NCBI GenBank assembly: GCA_018653365.1
Contig: JABIAG010000001.1
Coordinates: 326,951 to 390,950 of the forward strand
Length of the DNA: 64,000 bases
Direction of reading: 5' to 3'
Origin: Candidatus Woesearchaeota archaeon
GTDB lineage: Archaea; Nanobdellota; Nanobdellia; Woesearchaeales; JABIAG01
In this document: in pieces, positions 1,907 to 63,812 of the stretch
Numbering within the stretch: position 1 is the first letter of the stretch
Layout: each line of letters opens with the position of its first letter
Made by a program: the position numbers and the translations under genes
The notes under the pieces: generated by a model
Told to the model about the DNA's origin: nothing
Database searches by the model: none
The model's input: only the letters and a program-made list of their open reading frames with translations

Positions 1907-2530
1907 TTATCTATAATCTGATCTTTTTCTTATGACTGGACGTTTAGAACTAACTCTTTTAGCAGCGTTTGTAAGATATTCTGGAAATTCAAATGTTGAA
2001 TCTTCATCTCGGTTCCATAACTGACAATTTCGTCCTACACCCACATACTCAAGAAAATCATCAACAAATTCTGCTTGGGATGTTTCTAATCGTTTAATGG
2101 CACTAATTCTTATTTCAGCTCCTAATCTTGAATTACCTGCTCGTTCAATATTCTTCCAAGTACCAAGTATGCTTGTTGCTTCCTGTCTTAATGCTGAATC
2201 GTATTTCCACATTCCAACTATGTTTTTAGCAGTAGCAACATAAGTTAAAAAGCGTCTTGCTTCAAAATGATTAGTCTGGCCGATTTCGCTTAACTCCACT
2301 AGTTTATCTCTAGAATTTAAATATGAATTGTTAACTGATTTGATATTCTCCCAAACTCCATTTAATGTGATTTCAATAAGTTCAATCTCTCTACGACCTT
2401 GTTCAAGAACTTCTTCCCTATTAGTTTCAGTGAGTCTATCTTCCGAACGATGCCTAATTGTTCTTTCTGCCTGATTCAAAACTGCCTTAATTCTAGCAGC
2501 TCTCTTTCGTTTATCCCATGGATTTCCCAT
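1907..2530 (-). CDS. hypothetical protein (composition-atypical, R/E/A-rich)
   Basis: 207-aa ORF. No recognisable motif. Amino-acid composition unlike neighbouring K/I/N-rich proteins. Confidence 0.4.
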   Translation of the reverse strand: MGNPWDKRKRAARIKAVLNQAERTIRHRSEDRLTETNREEVLEQGRREIELIEITLNGVWENIKSVNNSYLNSRDKLVELSEIGQTNHFEARRFLTYVATAKNIVGMWKYDSALRQEATSILGTWKNIERAGNSRLGAEIRISAIKRLETSQAEFVDDFLEYVGVGRNCQLWNRDEDSTFEFPEYLTNAAKRVSSKRPVIRKRSDYR

Positions 2531-2627
2531 TTTAAACTTAGAGAGAAAGAATAGCTTAAAAAGCTTTCTTTATAAAGAACTACTGTAAAATAACAATATT
2601 TAAATACGCTAATACCGTAATTTAAGC

Positions 2628-3257
2628 ATGATTATCGAATGGCTAGGTCATGCCAGTATAAAGATAAAAACCAAAGACAAAGTAATATACATCGATCCTT
2701 ATTCTGGAGATTATACAAATGCAGAAAAAGCAGACATAATCTTAATAACACACTCACACTATGACCATTTCTCCAAAGAAAAAATATCACAAATAATGGC
2801 AGATGATACAATAATTGTAGCTCCTCTTACTGTTGGAACACAAATAGAAACCGAACTAATGAAAAACGGCGACAAAAAAGAAATAAACGGACTAAATATT
2901 GAAGCAGTACCCGCATACAATGTGACCAAATCATTTCATCCAAAAGGAGAAGGAAACGGGTACATATTTGAAATTGAGGGAAAAAAGATTTACTATTCTG
3001 GCGATACTGATTTAATACCTGAAATGAATTTAATGGAAGCAGACCTAGTCTTATTACCTATTGGGGGAACGTACACAATGGATGCAGAAGAAGCAGCATC
3101 AGTTGCAAAAGTAATCGGACCCGATCTAGCAATTCCAATCCATTGGGGAGAAATCGTGGGACACGAAGATGACGCACAACAATTCAAAGAAGAAATAATT
3201 AATGATACTGAAATAGAGGTTAAAATAATTAAACCTGGCGAAAGTATAGAATTCTGA
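2628..3257 (+). CDS. metallo-beta-lactamase-fold metal-dependent hydrolase
   Basis: ILITHSHYDHF (HxHxDH) motif, plus downstream His/Asp ligands. Confidence 0.7.
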   Translation: MIIEWLGHASIKIKTKDKVIYIDPYSGDYTNAEKADIILITHSHYDHFSKEKISQIMADDTIIVAPLTVGTQIETELMKNGDKKEINGLNIEAVPAYNVTKSFHPKGEGNGYIFEIEGKKIYYSGDTDLIPEMNLMEADLVLLPIGGTYTMDAEEAASVAKVIGPDLAIPIHWGEIVGHEDDAQQFKEEIINDTEIEVKIIKPGESIEF

Positions 3258-3361
3258 TATTAAGTCTTTTTTAAATTCGAAAAACTATTGTTCTACTTAA
3301 CAACAATGTTTAAAAAAGAATCTATGAGAAGAACAATATAAAAATTTGAAGGTGATAAAAA

Positions 3362-4537
3362 ATGGCATTTGAAAATGGAATATTTACTTCTGAAAGCGTA
3401 ACTGAAGGACATCCTGATAAGGTATGTGATCAAATTTCTGACGGGGTAGTTGATGCAGCGCTAGCACAAGATCCTGGAGCGCGAGTTGCGTGTGAGACCT
3501 CAGCAAAGGGAAATAATGTACTTTTGGCAGGAGAAATAACTTGTGATGGTGAGTTTGATGGAGAAATGATAGTAAAAAGCACTTTGGAAGACATTGGATA
3601 TGACCGAGATGAATTTGGAACAAACTGGGAAAATACCCAGGTTACACAATGGTTGACACAACAATCTCCGGATATTTCACAAGGTGTATCTTTAGGACAA
3701 GGCTTGTATGAAGAACAAGGTGCGGGCGATCAAGGGATGATGTTTGGATATGCATGTAATGACACTCCTGAATTAATGCCTTTACCAATTGCATTAGCTC
3801 AACGGCTAGCAAGACGATTAACCGACGTGAGAAAAACTAATGTAGTGGGGTATTTAGGACCTGATGGAAAATCACAAGTATCTGTTGTGTATAGTGCGGG
3901 AAGACCTGTAAGATTATCAAATGTTGTAATTTCAACACAACATCTTCCTGATGCAGAACACGGTCAAATAGTTGAGGATATGGCAAATTATGTAATCTCT
4001 GAGGTGTGTCATGGATGGATGGATGATGATACAATAATTCATGTAAATCCTACTGGAAGATTTGTATTGGGGGGACCTTTTGCAGATGCTGGATTGACCG
4101 GAAGAAAAATTATAGTAGATACCTATGGTGGAATGGGAAGGCATGGAGGGGGAGCATTTTCAGGAAAAGACCCTTCTAAAGTAGACCGTTCTGGAGCTTA
4201 TGCAGCAAGATTCATTGCAAAAAATGTTGTCGCAGCTAACTTAGCTGATAAGGCTGAAGTCCAAATAGCATTTGCTATAGGTGTAGCAGATCCTGTCTCT
4301 ATAGCAATCGAAACATATGGAACCGAACGTGTGTGTCCGGAAAAGCTAGAACGTGTTGTGAGGGAAACTTTTCCTGTGAAACCTGCAGATATACTGAGTC
4401 ATTTTGATTTAAGAGAACCACATCAAAATGGGTGGTCTTATAAGGACACTGCAGCATATGGACATTTTGGAAGAACTGATGTTGCGTTTCCTTGGGAAAG
4501 TACAGAAAAGGTAGCAGAATTAATTCGGAGATTTTAA
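3362..4537 (+). CDS. metK: S-adenosylmethionine synthetase, bacterial/eukaryotic type
   Basis: 391 aa. N-terminal FTSESVTEGHPDKVCDQISD, GHPDK signature, and the C-terminal glycine-rich MetK motifs. Confidence 0.9.
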   Translation: MAFENGIFTSESVTEGHPDKVCDQISDGVVDAALAQDPGARVACETSAKGNNVLLAGEITCDGEFDGEMIVKSTLEDIGYDRDEFGTNWENTQVTQWLTQQSPDISQGVSLGQGLYEEQGAGDQGMMFGYACNDTPELMPLPIALAQRLARRLTDVRKTNVVGYLGPDGKSQVSVVYSAGRPVRLSNVVISTQHLPDAEHGQIVEDMANYVISEVCHGWMDDDTIIHVNPTGRFVLGGPFADAGLTGRKIIVDTYGGMGRHGGGAFSGKDPSKVDRSGAYAARFIAKNVVAANLADKAEVQIAFAIGVADPVSIAIETYGTERVCPEKLERVVRETFPVKPADILSHFDLREPHQNGWSYKDTAAYGHFGRTDVAFPWESTEKVAELIRRF

Positions 4538-5664
4538 AGCCGTTTGTAAGAAGCATGCATCAACCTTAACATTTTTTTTATTTTTTTATCTTTTATTTTA
4601 AAGAAAAGCACAATTCGAATAAGTTGATAAGCCAACCTAACCTTAAACGGAGGTGGAGAATCATCCATTAAAGTCTCTGCTAATTGATTACTAGGAATAT
4701 TAAAATATTTTTCAAACTTTCTATTACTAAACCCTAAAACTATTGCAGTAGTAGCCATAATACTGCACTTAAGAGTATTACCCAAACTTTCTTTCCAAGC
4801 CAATTCATAATCTCTCATTTTACCTTTATTGTTAAGAACTCCACTAATAGTTTCAGCCGCAAGCTTTCCTGATTTTAAAGCAAGATAAATGCCCTCGCCA
4901 GTACCCGCACATGTTAATCCGGCAGCATCACCACACACTAACATTCGATTCGTATAAGTTTTTTTGATTGGGCCAGTAGTTGGAAAAGATCCACCAAAAG
5001 ATAATTTTCCTTCAAGACGTATACTAAATTTATCTAGTGAATCATAAAAAACATCTTTAATATTTAGATCAGAAAAGGGAAATATGCCAATCCCTGCATT
5101 AACTAAACTACCTTTAGGGAAAGACCAAGAACACGAATAAGTGCTTGGATCAAAGAAAAAAGACAAGTTATCACTCTTAGCTCCTTTAAACAATCCTCCC
5201 ACACAAGGAACTAAACAGGGGGGTTGGCTAAGAAGTTTAAACTTTTTTTGAATACCATAATGAATTCCATAAGCAAGCACAACATACTTTGCTTCAATAC
5301 TTCCTTTATTTGTTAATATCTCTAAATGAGTTTCATGTTCAACTAGGTCCTTGCAAAAAGTTTCAAGTTGAATATTTAATCCATTAGCTAACCACTGTTC
5401 AAATTTTGGACGATTAAGCATAATATAAGAAAGATCAAAGGTTCTCTTACTTTTACCAACAACAACATCTAATTTTTTACATTCATTCTCTACAAAGGGA
5501 TAATCTGTGTGTTGAAATAATTCTTTAAAACCTTTAGTTCTGATACCTTCACCACATCGTAAAGGCAGTCCTATTTTTTTACGAGAATCAATAACTAAAC
5601 AATTTAATTGCTTAGCAGCCATCAAGCCTGCAATCCCTGCACCAATAACTACAACATCATACAT
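4534..5664 (-). CDS. geranylgeranyl reductase family FAD-dependent oxidoreductase (archaeal lipid saturation)
   Basis: N-terminal Rossmann motif MYDVVVIGAGIAGL. Length about 376 aa, typical of archaeal GGR. Confidence 0.7.
   Translation of the reverse strand: MYDVVVIGAGIAGLMAAKQLNCLVIDSRKKIGLPLRCGEGIRTKGFKELFQHTDYPFVENECKKLDVVVGKSKRTFDLSYIMLNRPKFEQWLANGLNIQLETFCKDLVEHETHLEILTNKGSIEAKYVVLAYGIHYGIQKKFKLLSQPPCLVPCVGGLFKGAKSDNLSFFFDPSTYSCSWSFPKGSLVNAGIGIFPFSDLNIKDVFYDSLDKFSIRLEGKLSFGGSFPTTGPIKKTYTNRMLVCGDAAGLTCAGTGEGIYLALKSGKLAAETISGVLNNKGKMRDYELAWKESLGNTLKCSIMATTAIVLGFSNRKFEKYFNIPSNQLAETLMDDSPPPFKVRLAYQLIRIVLFFKIKDKKIKKMLRLMHASYKRL
4560..4600. terminator. T/A-rich bidirectional terminator region between convergent metK and GGR
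   Basis: TTTTTTTTATTTTTTTATCTTTTATTTT tract between convergent stops. Confidence 0.35.
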
Positions 5665-7629: not shown

Positions 7630-8235
7630 TTAATTATTGAGGGAATAGCGTAATTCAATTTCAGCTATTTCTGCAATACGCTCATTAAGGGTTTCAGTAC
7701 TTAAAACTGGAAATCCATGTTTTGAATGACTGAAGGAAGCTCGTGGAGTGTTTAATTGGTCCATTCTTTCAGAAAGTTTGCTTGCAGTAGCGTACTGTGT
7801 TTTTGCACGTTCAAGAACGATTCTGCTTCTTTCATTATGGCCGCGAGTTTCAAGTGTATGAGCAAGTCTCATATTATAAAGAGCAGCATGACAAATTCCA
7901 CTAAATTGAAGTACGATCGCTTCATCAATGTTTGCCTCACTTGCACCTTTACTTCTTAATTTGGCTTCTGCAATACGTGCACGAGCCCAGGCAGTTTTAA
8001 ATTTTTGAACTGCTAAAGCGGTATGTTCAATACAGTCTTTTGTAGAAATGTAGCCTGTAGGAGTGGCTTTTCCTTCCCCAATAAGCTGACCAATACCATC
8101 TAAACAGACATCATAACGTGGTTCAACTCGCTCTTGTTTAGGTGTTGCAGGTGTTGCAACTTCTTCAACTTTTGGAGCACAGCCTGTTAAAAAGGTAATA
8201 AGTCCTAAGCTTGTTATTAATCGTCTATTCATCAT
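7630..8235 (-). CDS. putative lipoprotein, hypothetical (composition-atypical)
   Basis: Signal peptide with lipobox-like LTGC. A/R-rich mature protein with 4 Cys. Last gene of a 3-gene operon, overlapping the upstream gene by 1 nt. Confidence 0.45.
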   Translation of the reverse strand: MMNRRLITSLGLITFLTGCAPKVEEVATPATPKQERVEPRYDVCLDGIGQLIGEGKATPTGYISTKDCIEHTALAVQKFKTAWARARIAEAKLRSKGASEANIDEAIVLQFSGICHAALYNMRLAHTLETRGHNERSRIVLERAKTQYATASKLSERMDQLNTPRASFSHSKHGFPVLSTETLNERIAEIAEIELRYSLNN

Positions 8236-8975
8236 TATCTCCAGACTAATGTGTCAACATTGTCTCTTTTTCCCTCGGTGTGACCCGCTTCTATAAGGGT
8301 ACTTAACGTCCAATTTGGCGCGGATGATATTTTTGAGCCAGTCTCACTAAAAGTTTTAGCCTTACCTGTATAGGTTCGATTCTCTCCTTCGGGAGAGGTA
8401 ACCTCTACAGAATAACTAAATGTAGATCCCATTTGGTTTCCAATAAGTGTTTGCTCGGGTTTGTTAGAGTGAATTGTAAGTGTTGCATTAGGAAATTCAA
8501 ATTTTTGACCATCTGCGGCAGCCATAATTAAGGGATCTAAATAAAGCATCCAAGATCTAATTCTTATTCTTCTTCGATCTTCTTCTGGTTGACGTTGATA
8601 AGCCTCGGTGGCAGTATATGCTGGAACTAGATGTGTTAGTGCCGCAGCACATCTTCGCCAATTATTTGTAAGTAGACTGGAGTCTACTTCGTTTTCTAAA
8701 GATGTAAGTAAATGAAATTGGGGTGATTGAGTGTTAGAAACATTAACAAGTTTAGCATATTGGGAAGGGTCCATTGGATTTTTGAGTTCATCACCTTTAA
8801 GACAATTATGATGAAAGTTTCCCCAAGCAAGCGCGGTTAAAATTGGTGCAGAAACAGCAACGATTACGCTTCCGATTGTGAGATTTCTTCTAAATATTCT
8901 TTTTTGCTCTGCTTTTTCTTCTGCTTGATCTCTTCGTTGAGCTTCTCTGCTTCCTGGACTAAATTCTTTATGCAT
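8235..8975 (-). CDS. membrane-anchored hypothetical protein (one N-terminal TM, large extracytoplasmic domain)
   Basis: 246 aa. Charged N-terminus, then TM LTIGSVIVAVSAPILTALAW. Composition-atypical. Confidence 0.4.
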   Translation of the reverse strand: MHKEFSPGSREAQRRDQAEEKAEQKRIFRRNLTIGSVIVAVSAPILTALAWGNFHHNCLKGDELKNPMDPSQYAKLVNVSNTQSPQFHLLTSLENEVDSSLLTNNWRRCAAALTHLVPAYTATEAYQRQPEEDRRRIRIRSWMLYLDPLIMAAADGQKFEFPNATLTIHSNKPEQTLIGNQMGSTFSYSVEVTSPEGENRTYTGKAKTFSETGSKISSAPNWTLSTLIEAGHTEGKRDNVDTLVWR

Positions 8976-8980: not shown

Positions 8981-9385
8981 TTACCCCATTGAGTTTTCAC
9001 GAGCCCAATTTTCTTCATTAGGATCTCTATATTCACTTAAGTAACCCATCATACGTCTACCTACTTCTCCACTAGATGCATTTGCTGTTGCTTCTGCAAC
9101 ACAAAGGTTAACACCTCTTGGAATTACTACGGATTCTTCTTTGGGTACTTGAATTCCATATGCTTCTGCAATTCTTAAAGCATCTGATCTAAATCTAGGA
9201 TCGGTAATGTATTCGGTTATAAATAATTGTGCCATTTCATGATTTGGTAATCTTTGTTTAAGTGCACTTTTAAGGTTTACAACTGCAACGACTGGACTAC
9301 CAAGAACGGTATCTCTATCAACACTTCTTTCTAATTTAAGTTTTAGTTGTCTGGCCCGTTCGGGGTCAAATTTTGTGTTTGCCAT
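8981..9385 (-). CDS. hypothetical cytoplasmic protein (first gene of a 3-gene operon)
   Basis: 134-aa ORF, R/A-rich, no motif recognised. Preceded by a GC-rich palindromic leader. Confidence 0.4.
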   Translation of the reverse strand: MANTKFDPERARQLKLKLERSVDRDTVLGSPVVAVVNLKSALKQRLPNHEMAQLFITEYITDPRFRSDALRIAEAYGIQVPKEESVVIPRGVNLCVAEATANASSGEVGRRMMGYLSEYRDPNEENWARENSMG

Positions 9386-11415: not shown

Positions 11416-12051
11416 TTGGATATGTTATACCTGGCAGTGAGACACGAAGGAAAAGAAGTTGGAAGAAGAGAGCTTGCTGAGAGAGTTATGATAAGTATGC
11501 GTGAAGGCGCAGCTTCTAGTGTAGGGGAATGTGTAAATGAATCTGACCGGTTGATTTTACCTTACGATCAACATGTGGGGGTATTAACACATGCATTAAT
11601 TGGGGTTGTAATTCCGAAAAAAGATGTTGCTTCTTTTATGCCTATGTTTGATGTTAAAACAATTCCTTTGCGTGTAGGTTATGAAAGAGTTAACGGAACT
11701 AACGTGAGAAATGTGGGAAATAATTGGGTGGCTTTAGATGGAAACGATACTATTGTTATGAGTGTGAAAGGAAAGCATCAAAGGACTTTGGTGAATGTTT
11801 TTGATTGGGATTTTATTCTGAATTATGAACCAGATCCCTTGCCGTTGGTTGTTGAAACACCAGCTTCATCAGAAACACAACACATGGATATTTCTGAATT
11901 GGGACTAGAAGTTAGACAACCTGTGGGAGATTCTCCTATGTCTAGAACACGACGAATGAATGTTGAAGATTTTAAATCTAAACCGCATATCTCAAGATGG
12001 CAGCGACTTTGCCAATATCTTTCAACTGTGCACCTTCCCGGGTCTCGGTAG
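11416..12051 (+). CDS. hypothetical protein (composition-atypical)
   Basis: 211-aa ORF. The 3' end converges on and overlaps aRF1 by about 74 nt. No motif recognised. Confidence 0.3.
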   Translation: MDMLYLAVRHEGKEVGRRELAERVMISMREGAASSVGECVNESDRLILPYDQHVGVLTHALIGVVIPKKDVASFMPMFDVKTIPLRVGYERVNGTNVRNVGNNWVALDGNDTIVMSVKGKHQRTLVNVFDWDFILNYEPDPLPLVVETPASSETQHMDISELGLEVRQPVGDSPMSRTRRMNVEDFKSKPHISRWQRLCQYLSTVHLPGSR

Positions 12052-15901: not shown

Positions 15902-17128
15902 ATGAAATTTGCACATTTAGCAGACTGCCATATTGGTGGATGGAGAGATGAACGATTAAAAGATCTGAATTTAACAGCTTTTGTCACATCAATAGATAAA
16001 TGTATTGAGAAAAAAGTTGATTTTATTCTAATAAGTGGAGATTTATTTAATACATCCATACCAGGAATAGATAAATTAAAAGAGTGTGTAAAATGTTTAC
16101 GTAAACTAAGACGACAACAAATTGCAGTTTACATAATTGCAGGTAGTCACGATTTCTCCCCTTCAGGAAAGACAATGCTAGATGTACTAGAAGAAGCAGG
16201 ACTGGTTAAAAATGTTGTAAGTGGCGAAGTTGTAGAAGATAAACTGAAGTTAAAGTTTACCATCGATGCTAAAACAGGAGCAAAAATTACAGGAATGTTA
16301 GGAAAAAAAGGAATGCTTGAAAAAAGTTATTACGAAAATCTAGAAGTTTCAAATTTAGAACAAGAAGAGGGATTCAAAATATTCATGTTTCACACAGCAA
16401 TAACCGAACTCAAAACAAAAGAGATGGAAAACATGGACTCTGCACCAATTTCATTATTACCTAAAGGATTTGACTATTATGCTGGAGGACACGTACATAT
16501 TGTTAATAAGTTCCATTTTGATGATTATAATCACGTCGTTTATCCAGGACCAACATTTCCCAACAATTTCGGAGAACTAGAAAAACTAAAAAAGGGGGGT
16601 TTTTATCTTTACGAAGATGGATTAATATCATATGAACCAATTTCTGTTTGTAACGTATTCTGCATAAAAAAAGACTGTACTGAAAAATCTCCTGAAGAAA
16701 TAGAGGCCGAACTAAGAAGGGAGGTGTTAGAAAAAACATTTGACAACACAATCGTGCTAATTCGACTAAAAGGAACGTTGAAAACAGGCAGGCCATCTGA
16801 TGTAAACCTTAATGAAATTATTAAATTACTTTATGACAAATCTGCATTATTTGTGATGAAAAATACTAACGCACTAGAATCAAAAGAGTTTGAAGAGGTA
16901 AAAGTACAAGAAAGTTCTGTAGAAAAAGTAGAAGCAAAACTAATCAAAGAACATCTGGGACAGAATAAAGATCTAGGACTGGATGTTGAAAAAGAAGAAG
17001 ATCTAACAAAAGAACTAATCCAAGCACTATCTGAAGAAAAACAGGAAGGTGAGAAGGTTTACGAATTTGAATCTAGAGTTAAGAAAAATGCGCGAAGTGT
17101 TATAGCAAAAGAAATATTTCAGAATTAA
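15902..17128 (+). CDS. Mre11/SbcD-like metallophosphoesterase nuclease
   Basis: Motifs HLADCHIGG, DFILISGDLF, AGSHD. No Rad50-like ATPase adjacent. Confidence 0.6.
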   Translation: MKFAHLADCHIGGWRDERLKDLNLTAFVTSIDKCIEKKVDFILISGDLFNTSIPGIDKLKECVKCLRKLRRQQIAVYIIAGSHDFSPSGKTMLDVLEEAGLVKNVVSGEVVEDKLKLKFTIDAKTGAKITGMLGKKGMLEKSYYENLEVSNLEQEEGFKIFMFHTAITELKTKEMENMDSAPISLLPKGFDYYAGGHVHIVNKFHFDDYNHVVYPGPTFPNNFGELEKLKKGGFYLYEDGLISYEPISVCNVFCIKKDCTEKSPEEIEAELRREVLEKTFDNTIVLIRLKGTLKTGRPSDVNLNEIIKLLYDKSALFVMKNTNALESKEFEEVKVQESSVEKVEAKLIKEHLGQNKDLGLDVEKEEDLTKELIQALSEEKQEGEKVYEFESRVKKNARSVIAKEIFQN

Positions 17129-17496
17129 CCTTGTTGGGCTAAGGAGGCAAGAGTTAACATGCCGGCAAGAGAACTTACTGTGCTTTCGAGAGCAGGCGAA
17201 AGACGTCTGAACGCAACTCCGCTTTTTTCACAAACCTCTGCTAAAACTTCTTCAGTTCTTGCCTTAGTTGGAGCGGAAACAGTAAGTAACAAAATGTTTC
17301 CCGTTTGTGGTAATCTAGTCATACTAACCATATAACCGTGTTGTTCTGTGCCTCGTCTAACACAACAACCGTTATATCTTGGAAATTGTCCGTCAAGCTC
17401 TTCAAAATTAGGCTCGTATCTAGCAAGAACAGTTCTAACATCTGTTGGGTCATCGGAAACTCTAATTCCTATATTCGGTATTGGCATGATTGTCAA
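17125..17496 (-). CDS. hypothetical protein (composition-atypical)
   Basis: 123-aa ORF. Convergent 4-nt overlap with the Mre11-like gene. Confidence 0.35.
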   Translation of the reverse strand: MTIMPIPNIGIRVSDDPTDVRTVLARYEPNFEELDGQFPRYNGCCVRRGTEQHGYMVSMTRLPQTGNILLLTVSAPTKARTEEVLAEVCEKSGVAFRRLSPALESTVSSLAGMLTLASLAQQG

Positions 17497-23257: not shown

Positions 23258-23353
23258 GCGGGCCCCACGAGATTCATGTCATCACTTCACTTCGTTTCGT
23301 TCTGGACGAATCTCTAAGTCCCTTAAAAGAATTTGGCGGGCCCCACGAGATTC
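23258..23353. repeat. 18-bp perfect direct repeat GCGGGCCCCACGAGATTC (copies at 23258-23275 and 23336-23353); the second copy is the 3' end of tRNA-Lys
   Basis: Both copies read directly from the sequence. att-core-like duplication of a tRNA 3' end, with 78-bp spacing. Confidence 0.7.
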
Positions 23354-23426
23354 GAACTCGCAACCTTCCGATTTCTTTTTTTAAAATTAAGAGTCGGATG
23401 CTCTAACCAGATTGAGCTAGAGGCCC
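23334..23426 (-). tRNA. tRNA-Lys (anticodon CUU) with an intron of about 15 nt at the canonical 37/38 position; CCA encoded
   Basis: Reverse complement folds as acceptor GGGCCUC/GGGGCCC, D-stem GCUC/GAGC, anticodon stem UCCGA/UCGGA with loop CUCUUAA interrupted by AUUUUAAAAAAAGAA, T-arm GCGAG-UUCGAAU-CUCGU, then GCCA. Confidence 0.8.
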
Positions 23427-23690: not shown

Positions 23691-24137
23691 ATGCGATGCC
23701 CATACTGTTTAAGTGAAAATACGAAAGTTGTAGATAAAAGAGATAGTGAAAACTTTACTAAAAGAAGAAGAGAATGTCTAAAATGCAAAAAGAGATTTAC
23801 AACACACGAACGAGTAGAAAGTGTTGATATGATTGTAGTGAAAAAAGCGGGCGAAAGAGAACGTTACGATCGAGACAAAATAAAACGAGGATTAATTAGA
23901 GCATGCGAAAAAAGACAAATTACGCTGGAACAAATTGATGATACTTTAGATAAAATAGAAACCGAATTAAGAAAATCAAACTCTACAGAAATACCCTCTT
24001 CCAAAGTCGGTAATGTAGTAATCAAATATTTAAAAAGATTAGATAAAGTAGCATACATACGATTCGCATCAGTTTACAAAGATTTCAAAGATGTAGAAGA
24101 ATTTCAAGAAGAACTAAAAACACTATTAAAGAGGTAG
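23691..24137 (+). CDS. nrdR: transcriptional repressor NrdR (zinc ribbon + ATP-cone)
   Basis: N-terminal MRCPYC...CLKC zinc ribbon, followed by an ATP-cone. 148 aa. Confidence 0.85.
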   Translation: MRCPYCLSENTKVVDKRDSENFTKRRRECLKCKKRFTTHERVESVDMIVVKKAGERERYDRDKIKRGLIRACEKRQITLEQIDDTLDKIETELRKSNSTEIPSSKVGNVVIKYLKRLDKVAYIRFASVYKDFKDVEEFQEELKTLLKR

Positions 24138-24144
24138 AGAAAAA

Positions 24145-27591: not shown

Positions 27592-27592
27592 A

Positions 27593-34233: not shown

Positions 34234-34280
34234 TTCCACATCGTTCCAATCGTTCCACTCAACCTATTTATATAGTTCCA
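34233..34280 (+). promoter_or_regulatory. four direct GTTCCA(C) repeats (34233, 34243, 34252, 34275) flanking a TTTATATA TATA box; candidate operator/iteron array
   Basis: Read directly. Spacings of 10, 9 and 23 bp. The TATA box at 34266-34273 lies between repeats 3 and 4. Confidence 0.45.
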
Positions 34281-34304
34281 CCTTTCTAATTTTTATTAAA
34301 AATT

Positions 34305-40700: not shown

Positions 40701-40788
40701 CTTAGAAGGAAAAGGACAAAGAATATTACTATTCTTAATAGGAATATTTGCATTTTTATTAGTAATGCTTATCGTTTGGAAACGATAA
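37741..40788 (+). CDS. cell-surface subtilisin-like serine protease (S8) with a long glycosylated beta-rich stalk and C-terminal TM anchor
   Basis: Catalytic triad motifs VCILDTGID, HGTHVAGIV, GTSMSTPHVAA. Dozens of N-x-S/T sequons. PEV repeat linker, then a C-terminal TM. Confidence 0.85.
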   Translation: MKWGIILVLLISLTTLVLASDNAGNEELHDVIIMFEDGETLDLHSATTRSGYSVQTLNEVVPGKEIEHVFTSFNGISGKFTTSELENIRKNKKVKAIEETQAYQATLDVSVPLMNSTLFQNVSFNGTKLNGTGVTVCILDTGIDDTHAALNASLIPDAGNSRGFVGWDYVNDDDYPYDDQVFNTYGVPTVGGHGTHVAGIVGSRDATYPGIAPGVNIIPIKVLNASGGTTVTPFLAGIEWCVNNATRFNISVISISIGGSTYISVCDGESIPSLFVPVINEAVSKNITVMVSAGNDYSALGLTDPACIANATSVGRTNDDDTISSNSKTASFLDFLAPGTGIISTKRTGGFTSKDGTSMSTPHVAATVALLQQYYHKYYGRFTDTETIKAALNASGPKINDTRLGLDQEFTRVDVYGAYEALITDAPVLAFIDPTPANGSGLLTLDYTFNVSINDTSHNISYCYLTFNSTRYVMGVNDTTVQNATCNVSVNLGMPEKGNYSYYVTGLDDKGELGISETWQVEVLNTPPTINNVSEYGNLSSKETELLTLTVNVSDFNGDTLTFNWLLNETSIATTQNLSHTFNHSQAATYWNLTLNVSDGENYTTQVWNVSVNNTNRLPVFNNPTSYVVNESQMINITLNVTDNDDDDTLTYGTNASLFTQNVNDFNWTTNYTDAGTYSILFNVTDGTVVVNQTVTLTVNDKARLNANSSNITSSVELNIFVNGSLNDTELTEVIALNLTDTSNNTLITFDWNFSSANMSVDIDYVAGSGTLIVRGLDLSSQSVTKTVYVNKSTSTFDYVCVVDKEVDSIATLSSDCSNANETNVPCPGTNGAYSCAVEGSYFKVSGLNHSAIKGMTTPAVGDPGGSGTGGSGGGDDSDDDVLVVCQEDWICEGFKECIDEKLTRRCFDGNNCGTTLRQPLLEKECVEETYQTQEPEVEPTPEVVPEVVPEVKKSGFQQVINNIGNWFKNLNKEKTDTEEVDSNKFNLEGKGQRILLFLIGIFAFLLVMLIVWKR

Positions 40789-42661: not shown

Positions 42662-43216
42662 ATGACTACTACAGACGCTGATGCACAAGTTCGTTTTCCA
42701 GGTATGGGAATAGCAAGTGAAGAAAGACTTGCGAGAACGGCTGAACTTTTTGGCGAAGTATTCTTAAATTATTGTGCAGGACTTGTTGGAGATGAACAGG
42801 CTTCTGATCTATATCAAGATGTTTTCCAAACAGCAGTAGAACAGACTGATAGTCTAGGCCCAGATCAAGACGCGCTAATTTGGCTTCGTAATATGGCTCG
42901 AAACAGAGCAAGAGGTTATCATAAATCTCGTGAAATGCAGCTAAAACGTTTTGGCGAAGCAGATGAAGCTGATCTTTCAGATGAGGGATTAAGTCCGCGT
43001 GATATGGCACAAAGATCAGACTTACATAACGCAGTAAGAGCACAAGTAGATGCTTTACAACCCACTTACCAAGAAGCAATTAGACTAACACTTTTAGAAG
43101 GTCATTCACAAAGACGGGCAGCAGAACTGGCAGGTTGTTCTCCAAGTACAATTCAATACAGAGTAGGAAAAGCAAAAGAGGCATTAAGAACCAGTTTAGG
43201 TCAAATTCTAGATTAA
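42662..43216 (+). CDS. ECF-type sigma-70 family protein (regions 2 and 4); composition-atypical
   Basis: Region 2-like ASDLYQDVFQTAV...WLRNMARNRARGYHKSR. Region 4-like YQEAIRLTLLEGHSQRRAAELAGCSPSTIQYRVGKAKEALR. Confidence 0.65.
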   Translation: MTTTDADAQVRFPGMGIASEERLARTAELFGEVFLNYCAGLVGDEQASDLYQDVFQTAVEQTDSLGPDQDALIWLRNMARNRARGYHKSREMQLKRFGEADEADLSDEGLSPRDMAQRSDLHNAVRAQVDALQPTYQEAIRLTLLEGHSQRRAAELAGCSPSTIQYRVGKAKEALRTSLGQILD

Positions 43217-46833: not shown

Positions 46834-47427
46834 GTGAATCTTTTTAAACACTACAAACTTACTTTTTTTATGGTAAATCCCTTATACTTAACCCCTCCTA
46901 CTGTTGGAGAACTTTGTTGGGCTTCATTAATTAGAAACGAGTCTCCCTTATTTGCTCTGGCAAAAATGAGGAGTCTTCTAGGTCCAGTAGGAGTGCCTAA
47001 TCTGCTCCGAGAACAGTTTGCAATGGATGAATTATGCAATGTTGTAGAACAAGAACCTAATGATGTACTAAGAGGTCTGACTTACATTGAACTTGATTTA
47101 CTGACGACGGGTGATAATGCTTTCGAACAATTAGCGGCAGTACAGTCCTTTTTATCTCCAAACGCAACCCTGCGAAGAGGGGGTGGCGATTGTAAATCCT
47201 TTGTTATATTATATGTGGCGTTACAAAGAGCAAAAGGAAGAGCAGCAAGGTTTGGAACTTATGAAGGAAACCATATAATTACAGAATTAGATGTTGAGGG
47301 GGGTTGTAATTCAAGAATGTGGTTAAGACACGATCCCCGATGGTTTCCCCTTACTGGACCTTTAACTAATTCTGATGAAGGTTATAGTGAAGCATACGAA
47401 ATAGCACTTGATATGTTAAACCAATAA
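46834..47427 (+). CDS. transglutaminase-like cysteine protease fold protein (composition-atypical); start uncertain
   Basis: GGGDCKSFVILYVAL (Cys), then GNHII (His) and a downstream Asp. Only 43 bp separate it from the divergent ATPase start, so an internal Met start is possible. Confidence 0.4.
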   Translation: MNLFKHYKLTFFMVNPLYLTPPTVGELCWASLIRNESPLFALAKMRSLLGPVGVPNLLREQFAMDELCNVVEQEPNDVLRGLTYIELDLLTTGDNAFEQLAAVQSFLSPNATLRRGGGDCKSFVILYVALQRAKGRAARFGTYEGNHIITELDVEGGCNSRMWLRHDPRWFPLTGPLTNSDEGYSEAYEIALDMLNQ

Positions 47428-60296: not shown

Positions 60297-60461
60297 TTAT
60301 TCATCAATTGCTTTAGCAAAGCAGACCTCTATGCACTGTTTGCAATTATTACACTTTTTTTTGTTAATAATTGCTTTGCCGTTTTCAACAGTTATTGCGT
60401 CTTTTGGACATACGGCAGCACAAGCTCCACAACCAAAACATTTATCGTTTATTGTAGGCAT
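60297..60461 (-). CDS. 2x[4Fe-4S] ferredoxin (54 aa), not in the ORF track
   Basis: Translation MPTINDKCFGCGACAAVCPKDAITVENGKAIINKKKCNNCKQCIEVCFAKAIDE, with two CxxCxxCxxxC(P) motifs. The listed + strand ORFs here are antisense. Confidence 0.7.
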   Translation of the reverse strand: MPTINDKCFGCGACAAVCPKDAITVENGKAIINKKKCNNCKQCIEVCFAKAIDE

Positions 60462-60462
60462 T

Positions 60463-60714
60463 TTAGTTTAACTCCTTTAATTGTTTTTCGATTTCTTCTT
60501 GTTCTGCGTTGAGTTCAGCAAGTTCAGCTTCAAGAATTTTTTTCTTTTGTTCAGAACTAAATTCTATGGTTCTGGCAAAACCTCGACCAAAACCTCTTCC
60601 TCTACCGCAAGGTCCAAATCCTCGTCCACGAGAAAGTGCACCTTCACAATTTCCGAGTTGTCTTCCTGTTAATTTTCCTTTACCGGCAGGGCCGGTTCCA
60701 TCTAATCTTGGCAT
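60463..60714 (-). CDS. DUF5320-family protein (Gly/Arg-rich N-terminus, coiled-coil C-terminus)
   Basis: MPRLDGTGPAGKGKLTGRQLGNC... N-terminal signature. GGAGG Shine-Dalgarno sequence 9 nt upstream. Start taken at the internal Met, not the ORF-track 60792. Confidence 0.55.
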   Translation of the reverse strand: MPRLDGTGPAGKGKLTGRQLGNCEGALSRGRGFGPCGRGRGFGRGFARTIEFSSEQKKKILEAELAELNAEQEEIEKQLKELN

Positions 60715-60730
60715 TTTATTTTTCCTCCGT

Positions 60731-60805
60731 TTATTTACATGGGCCTTTTTTTCGCCCTGTTTTTGGTCCTTCTCCATCTGGTCCTGTTCCATCTCTATTT
60801 GGCAT
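60731..60805 (-). CDS. 24-aa upstream mini-ORF duplicating the DUF5320 N-terminal motif (MPNRDGTGPDGEGPKTGRKKGPCK)
   Basis: 35-bp direct repeat of SD + start + first codons (60691-60727 vs 60791-60828). Own GGAGG. Stop lies 17 nt before the main start. Confidence 0.3.
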   Translation of the reverse strand: MPNRDGTGPDGEGPKTGRKKGPCK

Positions 60806-60928
60806 TTTATTTACCTCCATAATGAATCCATATTCATTATTAGTAATGAATACTAATTCATAATACTATATAAAGCTTTTGTTTAAATTGTCAAAAAACA
60901 TATAAATCAGGAATAAAGTCCGTTAGGC

Positions 60929-61333: not shown

Positions 61334-61379
61334 AACATTAAAACAAACTTTTATAAAGGCCTTCTAACTTAGTTGACAT

Positions 61380-61823: not shown

Positions 61824-61827
61824 GTTT

Positions 61828-62280
61828 TTAATCTTGTTCTAATAATCTAAAGTGATATTGGGGGGTAATTGCAGTAAAGTTTTGTTTAGCAAGAAATGCC
61901 AATGCGTGAGGATTACCTTGTTCAACAATCCAATATAGTGCTTTACATCCAATTTCTAACGCATCTTCTGTTAACCTTTTGAGCGTTGCAGAGCCAACTC
62001 CACACTGTCTTAAATGCGGATTTTTGTGGGTTGCTCTACCATTAGGGAAAAATAAGTTGATGTTAGCAAGAAGATCATCATGAGAAAGGCCTGCTGCAAT
62101 AAGTTGCTGATATGAATTGGGTTGTTGTCGATCACTAACTGGACCAATAATAACTTGAGCATCTCCAGTAGGTCTTGTAGGATCAGAAAAAGTGGTATTA
62201 TAACAAAGTGTAGTTCGTTTTCCTACAAAAGGAACATATATTTCTCTTTCAGTTCTTGTAATATTAAATCTTGGAACCAT
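61828..62280 (-). CDS. GNAT family N-acetyltransferase (composition-atypical)
   Basis: RQCGVGSATLKRL...GCKALYWIV acetyl-CoA binding motif A. Start taken at MVPRF (62280), just after the upstream stop. Confidence 0.6.
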   Translation of the reverse strand: MVPRFNITRTEREIYVPFVGKRTTLCYNTTFSDPTRPTGDAQVIIGPVSDRQQPNSYQQLIAAGLSHDDLLANINLFFPNGRATHKNPHLRQCGVGSATLKRLTEDALEIGCKALYWIVEQGNPHALAFLAKQNFTAITPQYHFRLLEQD

Positions 62281-62281
62281 T

Positions 62282-63277
62282 TTAAGCACTCGCAGCAACT
62301 AAATACATTGACTGAGCCCAACCTAATGGAGTGTTCTCATTCTGAATAATTGAGTTGCCTAAGTATAATTCGGGCATTTCTTTATCAGGTGTCATAACAT
62401 CCAAAGTTTTACGCATATAATAAGCATACTTATCTGGCTTGTTAAGAACTTTATAAATTTGAGCTAACCAGGGAAAACCCATGGTCCAACTAGGTTCTTG
62501 ACCATTATTGTAGTACAAATCTCCAACATAACGAATAACGCCTTGTTTTCGAACTAACTTATTCTCAATGTTAGTGAGTATTTGTTCAGCCTGTTCTTTA
62601 GAAACAATGTTATAGGGATATATTAATGAAAGTAATGCTAAATCACAATCTTTGGTTGCAGATTCATTAGGTAATAATTTGTTTAATGTTTCTTCTCCTT
62701 TTTTAATAAGTGAGAGAGGGACATTAACAATTTTTGAAATCTTTTTTAAACCAGCAACGCAAGCACCAACGCTAGAAGCATGAACTTCTTCGTTTTCTTC
62801 CCACATACCATTATCTTTATCTTGCCAGTATTCGATTGATAATAAGTAATCAACTAATTTCTGTAAAATTCTTCGATGAACATCACTTCTAATTATTTTA
62901 ATGCCTTTTTCTTCTAATTCTCCAACTTTAAATAAGAAAGCACCAATAGCATCATTCTGCTTATTGCCCCAATCTTCATAAATTTCATCAAAAGTAATTG
63001 GATCATAACGAGCATGAATGTATTGATATTTCTCAGTTGGTTTTTGTTTTATTGCATGATCGATTTTATACTCGTGTTTTAAGAAAATCTCAAATAAAGC
63101 CCAAAACGCTTTCTTAACTTCTTTTAAATTTTTAGTAGCTTCTAAACCCAGACTTTCATAAATACAATCTCGGATCCAAGCTTTATTATACCCTGTAGAA
63201 ACCTCTTTTTTACTAGCTGAAAATAGGCCTGAGGGATGTTGTAGTTCTTTTAATATGGTGATTGATTTTTCTATCAT
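62282..63277 (-). CDS. (alpha/alpha)6-barrel glycoside hydrolase-like protein (GH15/glucoamylase-related), tentative
   Basis: YNKAWIRDCIYE and a W/Y-rich helical repeat pattern. Weak. Confidence 0.35.
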   Translation of the reverse strand: MIEKSITILKELQHPSGLFSASKKEVSTGYNKAWIRDCIYESLGLEATKNLKEVKKAFWALFEIFLKHEYKIDHAIKQKPTEKYQYIHARYDPITFDEIYEDWGNKQNDAIGAFLFKVGELEEKGIKIIRSDVHRRILQKLVDYLLSIEYWQDKDNGMWEENEEVHASSVGACVAGLKKISKIVNVPLSLIKKGEETLNKLLPNESATKDCDLALLSLIYPYNIVSKEQAEQILTNIENKLVRKQGVIRYVGDLYYNNGQEPSWTMGFPWLAQIYKVLNKPDKYAYYMRKTLDVMTPDKEMPELYLGNSIIQNENTPLGWAQSMYLVAASA

Positions 63278-63294
63278 TTGTTCCTCTGTCTAGT

Positions 63295-63402
63295 TTATAC
63301 TGTTGCTTCTTGTGATTCACTTGATTTAGTCCAACATTCATCACACATTGGTTGATCCAAGTAAATTATTTCAGCTTCTTTATTACATTTAACACATTTC
63401 AT
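63295..63402 (-). CDS. 35-aa zinc-ribbon peptide (CxxC-x15-CxxC), not in the ORF track; ATGA overlap with the upstream gene
   Basis: Translation MKCVKCNKEAEIIYLDQPMCDECWTKSSESQEATV. Confidence 0.4.
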   Translation of the reverse strand: MKCVKCNKEAEIIYLDQPMCDECWTKSSESQEATV

Positions 63403-63812
63403 TTGGTTCTCCTTTCTTTATGATAAATTTCTACTGTTTTTGCATCACCTGCTTTAAGTTTTCTAACCACATCAATTCCTACTGATGCTCCTGAATCAAG
63501 GTTATATACTGGAACGGGGTCATCAGCTCCCATTGGTTGGATGTGCGCAAATTTAGCAGTATGAGTAACTCTTCTAACAACATAGTGCATTTCAGGCGGT
63601 AGGCTGTGTTCAACTGCAATTATTGCTGGTTCTCTGTTGTCTCTTAATGTAGGATCTTGACTGGGAGTTGCTAGGTCTCTGATGCTTGTTGTTCTTAACG
63701 CAGCTAATTTTTCTTCAGACTCTCGTAAACCTCGAAGTGTTTTTTGTGTTTCTTCTCTTTCTCTTGCCCAACGTGCTTCTTTTTCTGCAAATGTTTCTGT
63801 TAAAGGGTTCAT
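63399..63812 (-). CDS. hypothetical protein (composition-atypical, R/A/E-rich)
   Basis: 137-aa ORF. Start ATG abuts the TAG of the upstream partial gene. Confidence 0.35.
   Translation of the reverse strand: MNPLTETFAEKEARWAREREETQKTLRGLRESEEKLAALRTTSIRDLATPSQDPTLRDNREPAIIAVEHSLPPEMHYVVRRVTHTAKFAHIQPMGADDPVPVYNLDSGASVGIDVVRKLKAGDAKTVEIYHKERRTK

Follow-up and report, generated by a model that had tools for sequence, protein, structure and literature searches.

On balance, we take 11 open reading frames (ORFs) of unusual protein composition in a Candidatus Woesearchaeota (DPANN) genome to be resident accessory genes of a clonal population, with an amino-acid composition that is intrinsic to the proteins and selected, and with synonymous sites at an AT-biased equilibrium. 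The analysis covers 64 kb (the window) of this 1.1-Mb genome, which has 34% GC. The ORFs had been flagged in a sequence-only reading as orphans of foreign-like protein composition and host-like codon usage. The flagged set is heterogeneous, not one element, and includes a DnaA-family AAA+/HTH protein, an ECF sigma-70 factor, a GNAT protein, an operon of a putative lipoprotein and a membrane protein, and several true orphans (Table 1). The traits uniting them would be evolution several times faster than in housekeeping neighbours, or gain and loss between sister genomes, together with the retention of an Arg-over-Lys, Ala/Gly-rich make-up.

Table 1. Flagged ORFs of the window, followed by unflagged genes of like composition. 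Family searches for the small ORFs used Pfam, NCBIfam, PHROG and PADLOC.
Position	Strand	Feature	Setting, domains and family matches	Composition	Slot in sister genome or other relatives
1907-2530	-	207-aa Arg/Glu-rich orphan	between SRP54 and MBL-fold hydrolase; no Pfam, NCBIfam, PHROG or PADLOC match	GARP 0.256, R/(R+K) 0.68, GC3 0.19	148-aa ORF, same orientation (L004 13423-13869), R/(R+K) 0.60; 33% identity over 70 aa, pairwise E 5e-7
7630-8235	-	201-aa putative lipoprotein	last gene of three-gene operon-like cluster; no family match		absent; 8235 orthologue adjoins ThrRS
8235-8975	-	246-aa membrane-anchored protein	middle gene of cluster; single hydrophobic helix at N-terminus		syntenic orthologue of equal length, 40-42% identity
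8981-9385	-	134-aa orphan	first gene of cluster; no family match		unrelated Lys-rich ORF, opposite orientation (L004 8430-8981; GARP 0.158, R/(R+K) 0.23)
11416-12051	+	209-211-aa orphan	3' end convergent with aRF1 3' end, 74-nt overlap; publicly called as 209 aa from 11422; no family match	R/(R+K) 0.68	absent; 186-bp gap in its place
17125-17496	-	120-123-aa orphan	between metallophosphoesterase and GatB; no family match		89-aa ORF, same orientation (L004 2533-2802), R/(R+K) 0.67, no detectable similarity
31506-33209	+	567-aa DnaA homologue, highly divergent, full-length	domain I, linker, AAA+ domain III, HTH domain IV, disordered tail		syntenic orthologue, 44-46% identity
42662-43216	+	184-aa ECF-type sigma-70 factor, regions 2 and 4	TIGR02937 63.8 bits (cut-off 42.9); Sigma70_r4_2 36.5 bits (cut-off 25.7)		absent; 72-bp gap between Dph2 and Na/Ca exchanger
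46834-47427	+	~185-197-aa orphan	possible transglutaminase-like Cys motif; Pfam Transglut_core 19.7 bits, under cut-off 23; no match among PDB sequences		sister assembly broken on either side of locus
61828-62298	-	150-156-aa GNAT-family acetyltransferase	Pfam Acetyltransf_1 27.8 bits (cut-off 20.7), C-terminal part of domain only; in NCBI, GNAT family N-acetyltransferase		no homologue adjoining GH15 in two more distant relatives
63399-63812	-	137-aa orphan	charged helical N-terminus; no family match		no homologue adjoining GH15 in L131 or L133
3362-4537	+	bacterial-type MetK, unflagged	TIGR01034 501 bits	GARP 0.294, R/(R+K) 0.59, GC3 0.21	not in corresponding slot
24145-28315	+	nrdD and nrdG, unflagged	Pfam NRDD and Radical_SAM	R/(R+K) 0.50 each, GC3 0.20-0.28	orthologues, 79% (nrdD) and 70% (nrdG) identity

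The flagged ORFs are resident genes of a clonal population

The flagged ORFs are genuine chromosomal resident genes, not artefacts. All 11 were confirmed at their coordinates, and ten are called genes in public records by exact look-up, with NCBI locus tags, where shown, running from HN592_02435 to HN592_02780; 17125-17496 is represented solely by a called gene of 120 aa in the same place in L047/L138, and exact look-up gave no match for 46834-47427, which has a GTG start. Each flagged gene has four NCBI protein accessions, with identical proteins on 10-47 contigs each, and the gene neighbourhood is unchanged, with identical flagged genes, in at least 24 contigs read (58 collection blocks in the index). 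Across 10-18 kb, the window is 99.99-100% identical to other samples. Samples differ by one mismatch in 13-18 kb: the population is clonal, and turnover at present is not visible. Gaps between flagged ORFs and their neighbours range from -74 to +241 bp, a packing as tight as that of native genes, and base composition shows a coding-type periodicity (GC1 > GC2 > GC3).

An assembly or insertion artefact had been one of two origins proposed for the set. Beyond the odd amino-acid make-up, two genes of bacterial flavour and wrong taxonomic labels on some related MAGs, nothing points to chimerism in the assembly, bacterial contamination or ORFs that are spurious. Such an artefact is scarcely credible, being effectively refuted by identical sequence and context across many independent assemblies and samples, by host-type GC3 and codon choice, and by blocks conserved with sister orthologues. 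It is further opposed by coding periodicity across ORF lengths of 120-567 aa at a genomic GC of 34% and by the exclusion of mis-binning for Woesearchaeota sigma factors (Castelle et al. 2021, PMC8204110).

Protein composition is distinct and codon choice is host-like

Compared with the other 47 ORFs of the window, the flagged ORFs have high GARP (0.280 vs 0.197), low FYMINK (0.218 vs 0.333), and raised GC1 (0.525 vs 0.454) and GC2 (0.429 vs 0.328; Mann-Whitney p ~1e-6, a circular test, since the ORFs had been picked by composition). GC3 is 0.211 vs 0.229 (p = 0.1), and synonymous codon fractions correlate between the two groups at r = 0.98 (AGA 0.62 vs 0.53, GCA 0.58 vs 0.55, TTA 0.42 vs 0.48). 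The description of a compositionally distinct set with host-like codons is therefore borne out, and the flagged ORFs stand at the extreme of the distribution, not inside it. The sharpest discriminator is Arg/(Arg+Lys), or R/(R+K), which spans 0.51-0.83 in flagged ORFs (0.67 for the set) and averages 0.26 in the others. Two analyses are less circular than the Mann-Whitney test on reader-selected ORFs. Unsupervised 2-means clustering on amino-acid composition placed 11/11 flagged ORFs in one cluster, and R/(R+K) rose as conservation in the sister, an independent variable, weakened or vanished (Spearman -0.39, p = 0.015, n = 39).

The same cluster took in six further genes: metK (3362), a phosphoesterase (10208), a rhodanese (15418), nrdD (24145), nrdG (27548) and a subtilase (37741). 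The compositional class is thus not exclusive to the flagged ORFs, as MetK, NrdD and NrdG are alike in this respect. The premise that ordinary amelioration shifts amino acids along with codons lacks support on two counts: amelioration is slower at codon positions 1 and 2 than at position 3 (Lawrence & Ochman 1997, summarised in PMC2575891), and NrdD, which like NrdG is vertically shared with the sister genome, is equally 'decoupled'. An S8 protease with 46% identity to its sister counterpart is as divergent as the flagged genes yet native in composition, so fast evolution by itself does not yield the composition.

Flagged genes diverge rapidly or vary in presence between sister genomes

The closest available genome is a syntenic sister of 30% GC, the sole close one; gains and losses are compared between these two genomes, unpolarised. 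Three flagged ORFs (31506, 8235 and 1907) have very divergent positional homologues there, with 30-44% identity vs 67-95% in neighbours, and at least four (7630, 8981, 11416 and 42662) are missing from their syntenic slots; the slot of 17125, which holds an ORF that cannot be related to it, is a possible fifth absence. Syntenic homologues therefore exist for some flagged ORFs only, and these are distant. In every gene pair between window and sister, dS is 1.0-1.8. Synonymous sites are thus saturated, and a gene that predates the split is bound to have host-like GC3. Recent transfer, as earlier proposed, is not supported for 31506, 8235 and 1907, given their positional homologues at this dS, but 7630, 8981, 11416 and 42662, perhaps with 17125, may be recent arrivals from an AT-rich donor.

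Non-synonymous rates in the flagged orthologues are 3-8 times those of housekeeping genes; for 8235-8975, dN is 0.61 vs 0.06-0.25. This protein keeps strongly conserved blocks (CAAAL.HL.PAYT and YLDPLIM.A.DGQ.FEFP.ATLTI.SN.P), and its single-sequence AF2 model has a pLDDT of 43. The N-terminus of its neighbour 7630-8235, MMNRRLITSLGLITFLTGC, looks like a signal peptide with a lipobox as read off the sequence.

In the reading we favour, selection on the proteins themselves would maintain their composition, which in the bacterial-type members probably came from old inter-domain transfers. Synonymous sites would have reached the host's equilibrium under AT-biased mutation, possibly to a greater degree than in native genes, since residence in an AT-rich genome exceeds the synonymous saturation time. 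Given protein-level selection and mutation-driven third positions, the 'decoupling' is to be expected.

Alternatively, the composition might be a relic of ancestry, with genes from GC-richer, mainly bacterial donors having fully ameliorated third positions and first and second positions still moving towards what is usual in the host, and composition as such unselected. The flagged genes do resemble the partially ameliorated transferred genes of the Lawrence and Ochman model in having third positions at host equilibrium and atypical first and second positions, where amelioration is slowest. Moreover, two of the families (DnaA and sigma-70) are hallmarks of bacteria, the bacterial-type MetK shares the pattern, and GARP is somewhat lower in the orthologues of the AT-richer sister (0.26 vs 0.30, 0.22 vs 0.25 and 0.22 vs 0.26). 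With 36-40% GC in more distant relatives, a shift of this lineage towards AT is probable. Unlike such genes, however, the flagged genes show no apparent decay. Their sister counterparts are Arg-rich as well (R/(R+K) 0.46-0.67), and changed sites in flagged orthologue pairs are as GARP-rich (0.20-0.30) as conserved sites, whereas in housekeeping pairs the sister has few GARP residues at such sites (0.03-0.18). For the flagged genes, R-K exchange is balanced between the window and sister lineages (13 vs 12). Finally, their faster non-synonymous change should speed decay, yet the flagged genes are the most GARP-rich. Together with the deep stability of the DnaA-like family described below, this leaves a relic of ancestry an unlikely explanation.

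A DnaA-like family keeps its composition at deep divergence

A word-seeded search with the protein encoded at 31506-33209 returned itself alone, and full HMMER found seven relatives among 1.84 billion representatives. The family profile (A1) matches B. subtilis DnaA (8btg) with an E value of 2e-29 and T. maritima DnaA (2z4r) end to end. Pfam detects Bac_DnaA_C in five of the seven members and DnaA_N in two; the window protein alone falls under Pfam thresholds. Its AF2 model (pLDDT 73) has DnaA chains (8btg, 1l8q, 2hcb and 3r8f) as top Foldseek matches, making DnaA the best match of the family by profile and by fold. Like the bacterial replication initiator DnaA (Pfam DnaA_N, Bac_DnaA and Bac_DnaA_C; PDB 8btg, 2z4r, 1l8q), the window protein and six relatives keep the order of domain I, linker, AAA+ domain and C-terminal HTH domain IV, and the family has a Walker A motif (GxxxxGKT), a Walker B Asp, a box VII-like Arg and an invariant Arg in domain IV.

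Unlike DnaA, these proteins come from DPANN archaea, whose genes for them lie in ordinary chromosomal settings. The window protein shares just 14-18% identity with DnaA structures, carries an additional disordered tail of ~50 aa, and its gene has neither a dnaN neighbour nor DnaA-box enrichment. Judging from alignments, the second Walker B acidic residue of the family appears to be replaced, as does the sensor II Arg in the window copy. A 2026 survey that applied strict thresholds reported dnaA as absent in Nanobdellota.

The composition of this family is stable at deep divergence: all seven members have GARP of 0.23-0.30 and R/(R+K) of 0.40-0.53 despite 20-25% identity, that is, through multiple replacements per site and in several host backgrounds. 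In two unrelated DPANN contigs, R/(R+K) of the members is above that of their neighbours (~0.2 and 0.1-0.4) and GC3 is shared. Since it is kept at 20-25% identity, the composition looks protein-intrinsic. Long-term stability was seen in the DnaA-like gene, from which we extrapolate to the other ten; we infer that in members without homologues, too, selection and not ancestry maintains the composition. The selective cause of Arg-richness is itself putative.

A divergent ECF sigma-70 factor

The top PDB match of the sigma factor at 42662-43216 is CnrH (E 2e-8), and word-seeded searching among 5.8 billion proteins returned nothing but the query. Sigma-70/ECF factors (fam00359) have been described in DPANN, especially in Woesearchaeota (Castelle et al. 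2021, PMC8204110). Like these, the window protein is a two-domain ECF factor in a Woesearchaeota host without an adjoining anti-sigma gene; unlike them, it is divergent beyond word-seeded detection and missing in the closest sister. The claim of foreign origin stands for at least two members that are bacterial-type by ancestry, the DnaA homologue and this factor. Orphan status holds for most of the set, which lack detectable relatives, and not for the three in known superfamilies (DnaA, ECF sigma and GNAT).

Exchange with an accessory gene pool as an unlikely alternative

The other origin proposed earlier, listed there first, corresponds to ongoing exchange with an AT-rich accessory pool (other Woesearchaeota or undescribed DPANN viruses and plasmids with differing protein constraints), in which variable slots would be recombination hot spots that swap alleles or cassettes. 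In keeping with this, the slots of 8981, 17125, 7630, 11416 and 42662 carry genes that are unrelated, or barely relatable, between the sisters, and the sister assembly is broken on both sides of 46834. In four other DPANN contigs, unannotated ORFs modestly exceed annotated ORFs in Arg-richness (0.38 vs 0.29, p = 0.014), and the GC3 of some lies below that of their neighbours. We nevertheless consider such exchange quite unlikely, given the clonal population and the results of searches for mobile elements and donors. The flagged ORFs have no integrase, direct or inverted flanking repeats or tRNA association. There was no PHROG or PADLOC match for the ten non-sigma ORFs, no relative in IMG/VR of the two ORFs scanned (sigma and 8235), and no match in phage and plasmid records for nine small ORFs. 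Large-database homology searches covered two of the 11 ORFs (word-seeded) and one by full HMMER; the word-seeded searches found no donor sequence for the proteins searched.

A mobile island was rejected on the same lack of flanking repeats and of phage, plasmid or defence matches. As in genomic islands and integrated elements, the presence of flagged genes varies between sister genomes; unlike islands, they are single genes without an integrase, flanking repeats, a tRNA target or a third-position compositional break. Like the lineage-specific ORFans of reduced DPANN/CPR genomes, the flagged genes are small, lack annotation, show weak conservation and are dispersed among housekeeping genes. Unlike these ORFans, they share a GARP-rich, Arg-over-Lys composition that sets them apart as a class from the host's conserved Lys/Ile/Asn-rich hypotheticals, which are 67-86% identical in the sister genome.

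Arg-rich protein composition and host-like codon usage

The sequence-only reading had described scattered orphan ORFs with a foreign-like protein composition and the codon usage of the host, and had proposed recent transfer from an AT-rich donor or an artefact. Our analysis shows that the flagged ORFs belong to the ordinary accessory gene complement of a DPANN archaeon and are lineage-specific, with two notable points: one compositional regularity, and one member, a DnaA homologue. All 11 flagged ORFs are present in the window (overall GC, 34%), and by exact look-up ten were matched to public called genes; look-up of 46834-47427 with its GTG start gave no exact match in public records, and 17125-17496 is a 120-aa called gene in L047 and L138, near-identical contigs from other samples. 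NCBI has exact copies of window proteins under HN592_02435 to HN592_02780, in contigs that reach 1.11 Mb.

Both halves of the compositional description were confirmed. Compared with the other 47 ORFs, the flagged ORFs had a higher GARP amino-acid fraction (0.280 versus 0.197), a lower FYMINK fraction (0.218 versus 0.333), and a higher GC at first (GC1, 0.525 versus 0.454) and second codon positions (GC2, 0.429 versus 0.328). At third positions the difference was not significant (GC3, 0.211 versus 0.229), and the synonymous codon fractions of the two groups were correlated at r = 0.98. Synonymous sites were slightly more AT-biased in the flagged ORFs (GC3s 0.18 versus 0.20; AAA 0.89 versus 0.78), a pattern that, in our interpretation, suits weakly expressed genes at mutational equilibrium. 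The cleanest separator was Arg/(Arg+Lys), or R/(R+K), at 0.51-0.83 in the flagged ORFs versus a mean of 0.26 for the rest, where only metK (0.59), nrdD (0.50) and nrdG (0.50) reached 0.5.

Since the ORFs had been picked on composition, p-values for composition are circular. Two checks were less circular: unsupervised 2-means clustering recovered all 11 flagged ORFs together with six others, and composition correlated with how well a gene is conserved in the sister genome, an independent measure (Spearman -0.39, p = 0.015, n = 39). The observation is therefore real, yet the flagged class amounts to a distribution's upper tail, where bona fide enzymes are found too. The analysis covered 64 kb of the genome and one close sister genome, with deep homology searches for three of the 11 flagged ORFs.

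The highest GARP fraction in the window (0.33) was that of a DUF5320 gene, which carries an imperfect 64-nt direct repeat (60658-60721 and 60749-60812, 72% identity) and is overlapped by a 115-aa ORF on the opposite strand (region 60463-60856). R/(R+K) was also raised across the nrdR-nrdD-nrdG cluster (0.45-0.50), in window and sister alike; NrdR is a repressor typical of bacteria.

Flagged ORFs and other features of the window, with their counterparts in the sister genome or, where stated, in more distant relatives
Coordinates	Strand	Feature	Counterpart
1907-2530		flagged ORF	positional homologue, shorter, 33% identity over 70 aa
7630-8235		flagged; putative lipoprotein	absent
8235-8975		flagged; putative membrane-anchored protein	orthologue, equal length, 40-42% identity, strongly conserved blocks
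8981-9385		flagged ORF	slot taken by unrelated Lys-rich gene on opposite strand
11416-12051		flagged ORF	absent
17125-17496		flagged ORF	89-aa ORF, same slot and orientation, likewise Arg-rich, similarity not detectable
31506-33209		flagged; DnaA homologue	same-slot orthologue, 44-46% identity
42662-43216		flagged; ECF sigma-70 factor	absent
46834-47427		flagged ORF	assembly broken either side of locus
61828-62298		flagged; GNAT	no homologues beside GH15 in two more distant relatives (L131, L133)
63399-63812		flagged ORF	no homologues beside GH15 in two more distant relatives (L131, L133)
3362-5664		bacterial-type metK and geranylgeranyl-reductase-family gene	one unrelated 235-aa ORF (L004 11997-12704)
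5690-7582	-	ThrRS	orthologue, 67% identity
11978-13138		aRF1	
23334-23426	-	tRNA-Lys(CTT), 93 nt	
23691-28315	+	nrdR-nrdD-nrdG	
33265-36218		two native Lys-rich genes between DnaA-like gene and Alba	absent
37741-40788	+	S8 subtilase, 1015 aa	orthologue, 1115 aa, 46% identity, dN 0.50
60463-60792	-	DUF5320 gene	

Assembly artefact and mobile elements

An assembly artefact is refuted by the recurrence of the same context across samples. The DnaA-like gene 31506-33209 (567 aa) has the same neighbours in at least 24 contigs (index of 58 collection blocks), and each flagged protein looked up occurs in 10-47 contigs, with four NCBI accessions where any were carried. Furthermore, contigs from three other ENA samples (L047, L137 and L138) match the window at 99.99-100% identity over 10.6-17.6 kb, covering six flagged ORFs and their junctions. 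They differ from the window by 0-1 mismatch over these lengths and represent an essentially clonal population; one SNP alters the flagged 8235 protein and another ThrRS. With all three contigs at 99.99-100% identity, moderately diverged strains for unsaturated dN/dS were not found among them.

A recent island or mobile element was rejected as well. GC3 and synonymous fractions are those of the host, a repeat search found no direct or inverted repeats and no cassette-like flanks around the flagged ORFs, and the sole tRNA gene in the window is distant from all of them. Homologues in phages and plasmids were likewise lacking: tblastn of nine concatenated orphans gave no match in plasmid and phage records, IMG/VR held no relatives of the two proteins scanned (the sigma factor and 8235-8972), and PHROGs, PADLOC and NCBIfam gave no useful match for the orphan ORFs. 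In PADLOC, none of the ten flagged ORFs other than the sigma factor matched at E <= 0.01, and the NCBIfam DS8 match of 31506-33209 was weak (18.6 bits versus a cut-off of 790) and confined to residues 169-257, P-loop included. Prophage and defence-island explanations were rejected too. Shadow or antisense ORFs are countered by coding periodicity and conserved blocks, and an effect of strand or replication skew by the occurrence of flagged ORFs on both strands. Gaps between flagged ORFs and their neighbours are tight (-74 to +241 bp), and an all-versus-all BLASTP found no paralogy among them.

The tRNA-Lys(CTT) gene is about 20 nt above standard tRNA length and presumably carries an intron. The 3' ends of 11416-12051 and aRF1 are convergent and overlap by 74 nt (11978-12051), which is unusual with so conserved a gene.

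Comparison with the sister genome

The flagged ORFs are surrounded by archaeal housekeeping genes of an ordinary kind: SRP54, aRF1, eIF-1A, Alba, Dph2, ArgRS, ProRS, ThrRS, GatA/B, nrdR-nrdD-nrdG, a glycogen-metabolism cluster and S8, S49 and U32 peptidases. A scan with ThrRS yielded a syntenic contig, CAYRWJ010000002.1 (L004 and L048; 30% GC), which is mislabelled as Methanosarcinales and is collinear with the window from 519 to about 46000. Several public DPANN MAG records carry such wrong labels, for example 'uncultured Methanosarcinales archaeon' and 'Eubacteriales bacterium'; the gene content of these MAGs (L004/L048 and others) is archaeal and DPANN-like, and they are syntenic with the window. 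A ProRS scan of metagenomes, which might have given a counterpart of the 46834 slot, found only distant DPANN loci without synteny. L131 and L133, the relatives located through GH15, proved too distant.

Housekeeping orthologues of window and sister are 67-95% identical, with dN of 0.06-0.25; dS is 1.0-1.8, so that synonymous sites are essentially saturated. Given this saturation, and since amelioration is fastest at third positions (PMC2575891, summarising Lawrence & Ochman 1997), host-like codons need no special explanation, and the premise that native codons are oddly decoupled from a foreign-like protein composition was wrong. As for recent transfer, it is refuted for three to four of the flagged genes, and it is a possible but unsupported reading for those that the sister genome lacks.

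Other variable or fast-evolving genes have a native composition, among them a GGR-like reductase, a DUF2238 gene, a methyltransferase, a rhodanese, S-layer-like proteins and an S8 protease; accessory or fast-evolving status is therefore insufficient for the Arg-rich pattern. The S8 subtilase, a candidate fast-evolving secreted protein, is a useful control, as its divergence is like that of the flagged genes and its composition native; it gave no tblastn match at E <= 1e-4 despite a clear global alignment to its sister orthologue. The two genes at 33265-36218 encode DUF7343 plus CarboxypepD_reg domains in one case and CARDB plus S-layer domains in the other; since the sister lacks both, surface-protein content differs between the two genomes. 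The metK gene is Arg- and GARP-rich with a low GC3, as in the flagged ORFs. ThrRS is of bacterial type (TIGR00418, 710 bits versus 233 for the archaeal model), with its best genome matches outside DPANN in Clostridia (52-58%), and its low identity to the sister orthologue (82-92% for its neighbours) suggests accelerated evolution or replacement.

A divergent DnaA homologue

A full HMMER search of 1.84 billion representatives returned seven relatives of 31506-33209, the sister orthologue included, whereas a word-seeded search of 5.8 billion proteins matched this protein, like the sigma factor 42662-43216, to itself only, the tool being too insensitive at <=45% identity. The family profile aligned to full-length bacterial DnaA (8btg, E 2e-29; 2z4r, over residues 3 to 436), domain III included, and the Walker A P-loop reads GDNSSGKT, with G185, G190 and K191 invariant in the family. 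In Foldseek, the best matches to an AF2 model (pLDDT 73; folded domain at 22-103) were domain III-IV chains of DnaA. The domain IV HTH (Bac_DnaA_C) was found in five of the seven family members (best E 5e-18), the window copy alone being sub-threshold, and the profile also matched isolated domain IV structures (1j1v, E 2e-11; 3pvp, E 1e-9). As for domain I, DnaA_N was detected in two of the seven members, the profile matched the structure 4tps_B (E 1e-5), and the 8btg alignment begins at residue 14.

Distant family members are encoded in normal chromosomal surroundings for archaea, beside STT3, Spt5, L11, Spt4 and Rpb7, and one is annotated as Pacearchaeota. The family seems to represent a DnaA lineage that is rare and very divergent and has been overlooked. 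A four-domain DnaA homologue in chromosomal contexts of Woesearchaeota and Pacearchaeota contrasts with the negative result of a 2026 preprint, in which dnaA was absent from Nanobdellota at strict thresholds. A role as replication initiator is putative and unproven: DnaA boxes were not enriched in the window (TTATCCACA with at most one mismatch, 20 matches versus 22 expected), and no dnaN adjoins the gene, which is flanked by genes for arginase and a DUF7343/CarboxypepD_reg-domain protein. The presence of such a homologue prompts the question of which function a DnaA-type AAA+/HTH protein serves where replication is presumably initiated by Orc1/Cdc6.

Other flagged proteins

The protein encoded at 42662-43216 is an ECF sigma-70 factor, with regions 2 and 4 in one 184-aa protein and a score over the curated family threshold (TIGR02937, 63.8 bits versus a cut-off of 42.9, residues 32-178). 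Sigma70_r4_2 was over its cut-off, Sigma70_r2 scored 23.3 bits against a cut-off of 24, and the best PDB match was CnrH, aligned over residues 44-176. Archaea are not known to have a bacterial-type RNA polymerase core enzyme. No anti-sigma gene lies beside it, its neighbours being Dph2 and a Na/Ca exchanger; Castelle et al. 2021 (PMC8204110) describe Woesearchaeota sigma-70 genes that likewise lack anti-sigma partners.

The 61828-62298 product is a GNAT (Acetyltransf_1, 27.8 bits versus a Pfam gathering score of 20.7, matched only at profile positions 68-116), and a weak PHROG acetyltransferase match agrees. For 46834-47427, considered as a possible transglutaminase-like cysteine protease, Transglut_core was sub-threshold (19.7 bits; cut-off 23), a GDCKSF motif can be read in the sequence, and no PDB sequence matched. 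ORFs 7630, 8235 and 8981 form an operon-like trio, the first two looking from their sequences like the lipoprotein and membrane-anchored protein listed in the table; a single-sequence AF2 model of 8235-8972 was unusable (pLDDT 43).

Proposed maintenance of the Arg-rich composition

We argue that the composition is maintained rather than just inherited, because it is stable across the DnaA-like family, because the sister counterparts are Arg-rich, and because substituted sites are GARP-rich. All DnaA-like proteins have a GARP fraction of 0.23-0.30 and an R/(R+K) of 0.40-0.53 at a mutual identity of only 20-25%, and members in two unrelated contigs stand apart from their neighbours in composition with the same GC3. 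Sister counterparts of flagged ORFs have an R/(R+K) of 0.46-0.67. In flagged orthologue pairs GARP is as high at substituted as at conserved sites, with symmetric exchange of Arg and Lys; in housekeeping pairs the sister, the more AT-rich of the two, has few GARP and many FYMINK residues at its substituted sites. We infer the same from a simple two-state relaxation argument: each lineage has undergone 0.25-0.4 replacements per non-synonymous site since the two separated, so that a compositional relic free of selection should by now retain well under half of its excess. An old inter-domain origin is likely for part of the set, since DnaA, sigma and MetK are of bacterial ancestry, and explanations by ancestry and by selection are compatible.

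It is conceivable, though we consider it unlikely, that the Arg-over-Lys, Ala/Gly-rich genes form a selected 'second proteome', fast-evolving, position-keeping between sisters and acting in host interaction or regulation. Such a set would include DNA-binding regulators of bacterial type, namely a cryptic DnaA family missed by strict annotation pipelines and ECF sigma factors unable to pair with the archaeal polymerase, and its members could possibly be bacterial parts turned into DNA-binding regulators, or episymbiont surface or effector proteins.

For genome scanning, a 'foreign' amino-acid composition with native codons does not point to recent transfer or misassembly; old residents under protein-sequence constraint are expected to look this way. 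In this clade R/(R+K) >= 0.5 marks fast-evolving accessory genes, and the same simple threshold could single out candidates for host interaction or regulation in other genomes that are reduced and AT-rich. Arg-rich orphans may be a general class among Woesearchaeota and Pacearchaeota. In four more distant contigs from these groups (L131, L133, L135 and L136; 36-40% GC), ORFs without a Pfam match had a higher R/(R+K) than annotated ones (0.38 versus 0.29, p = 0.014), and several of the Arg-richest had a GC3 below that of their neighbours.
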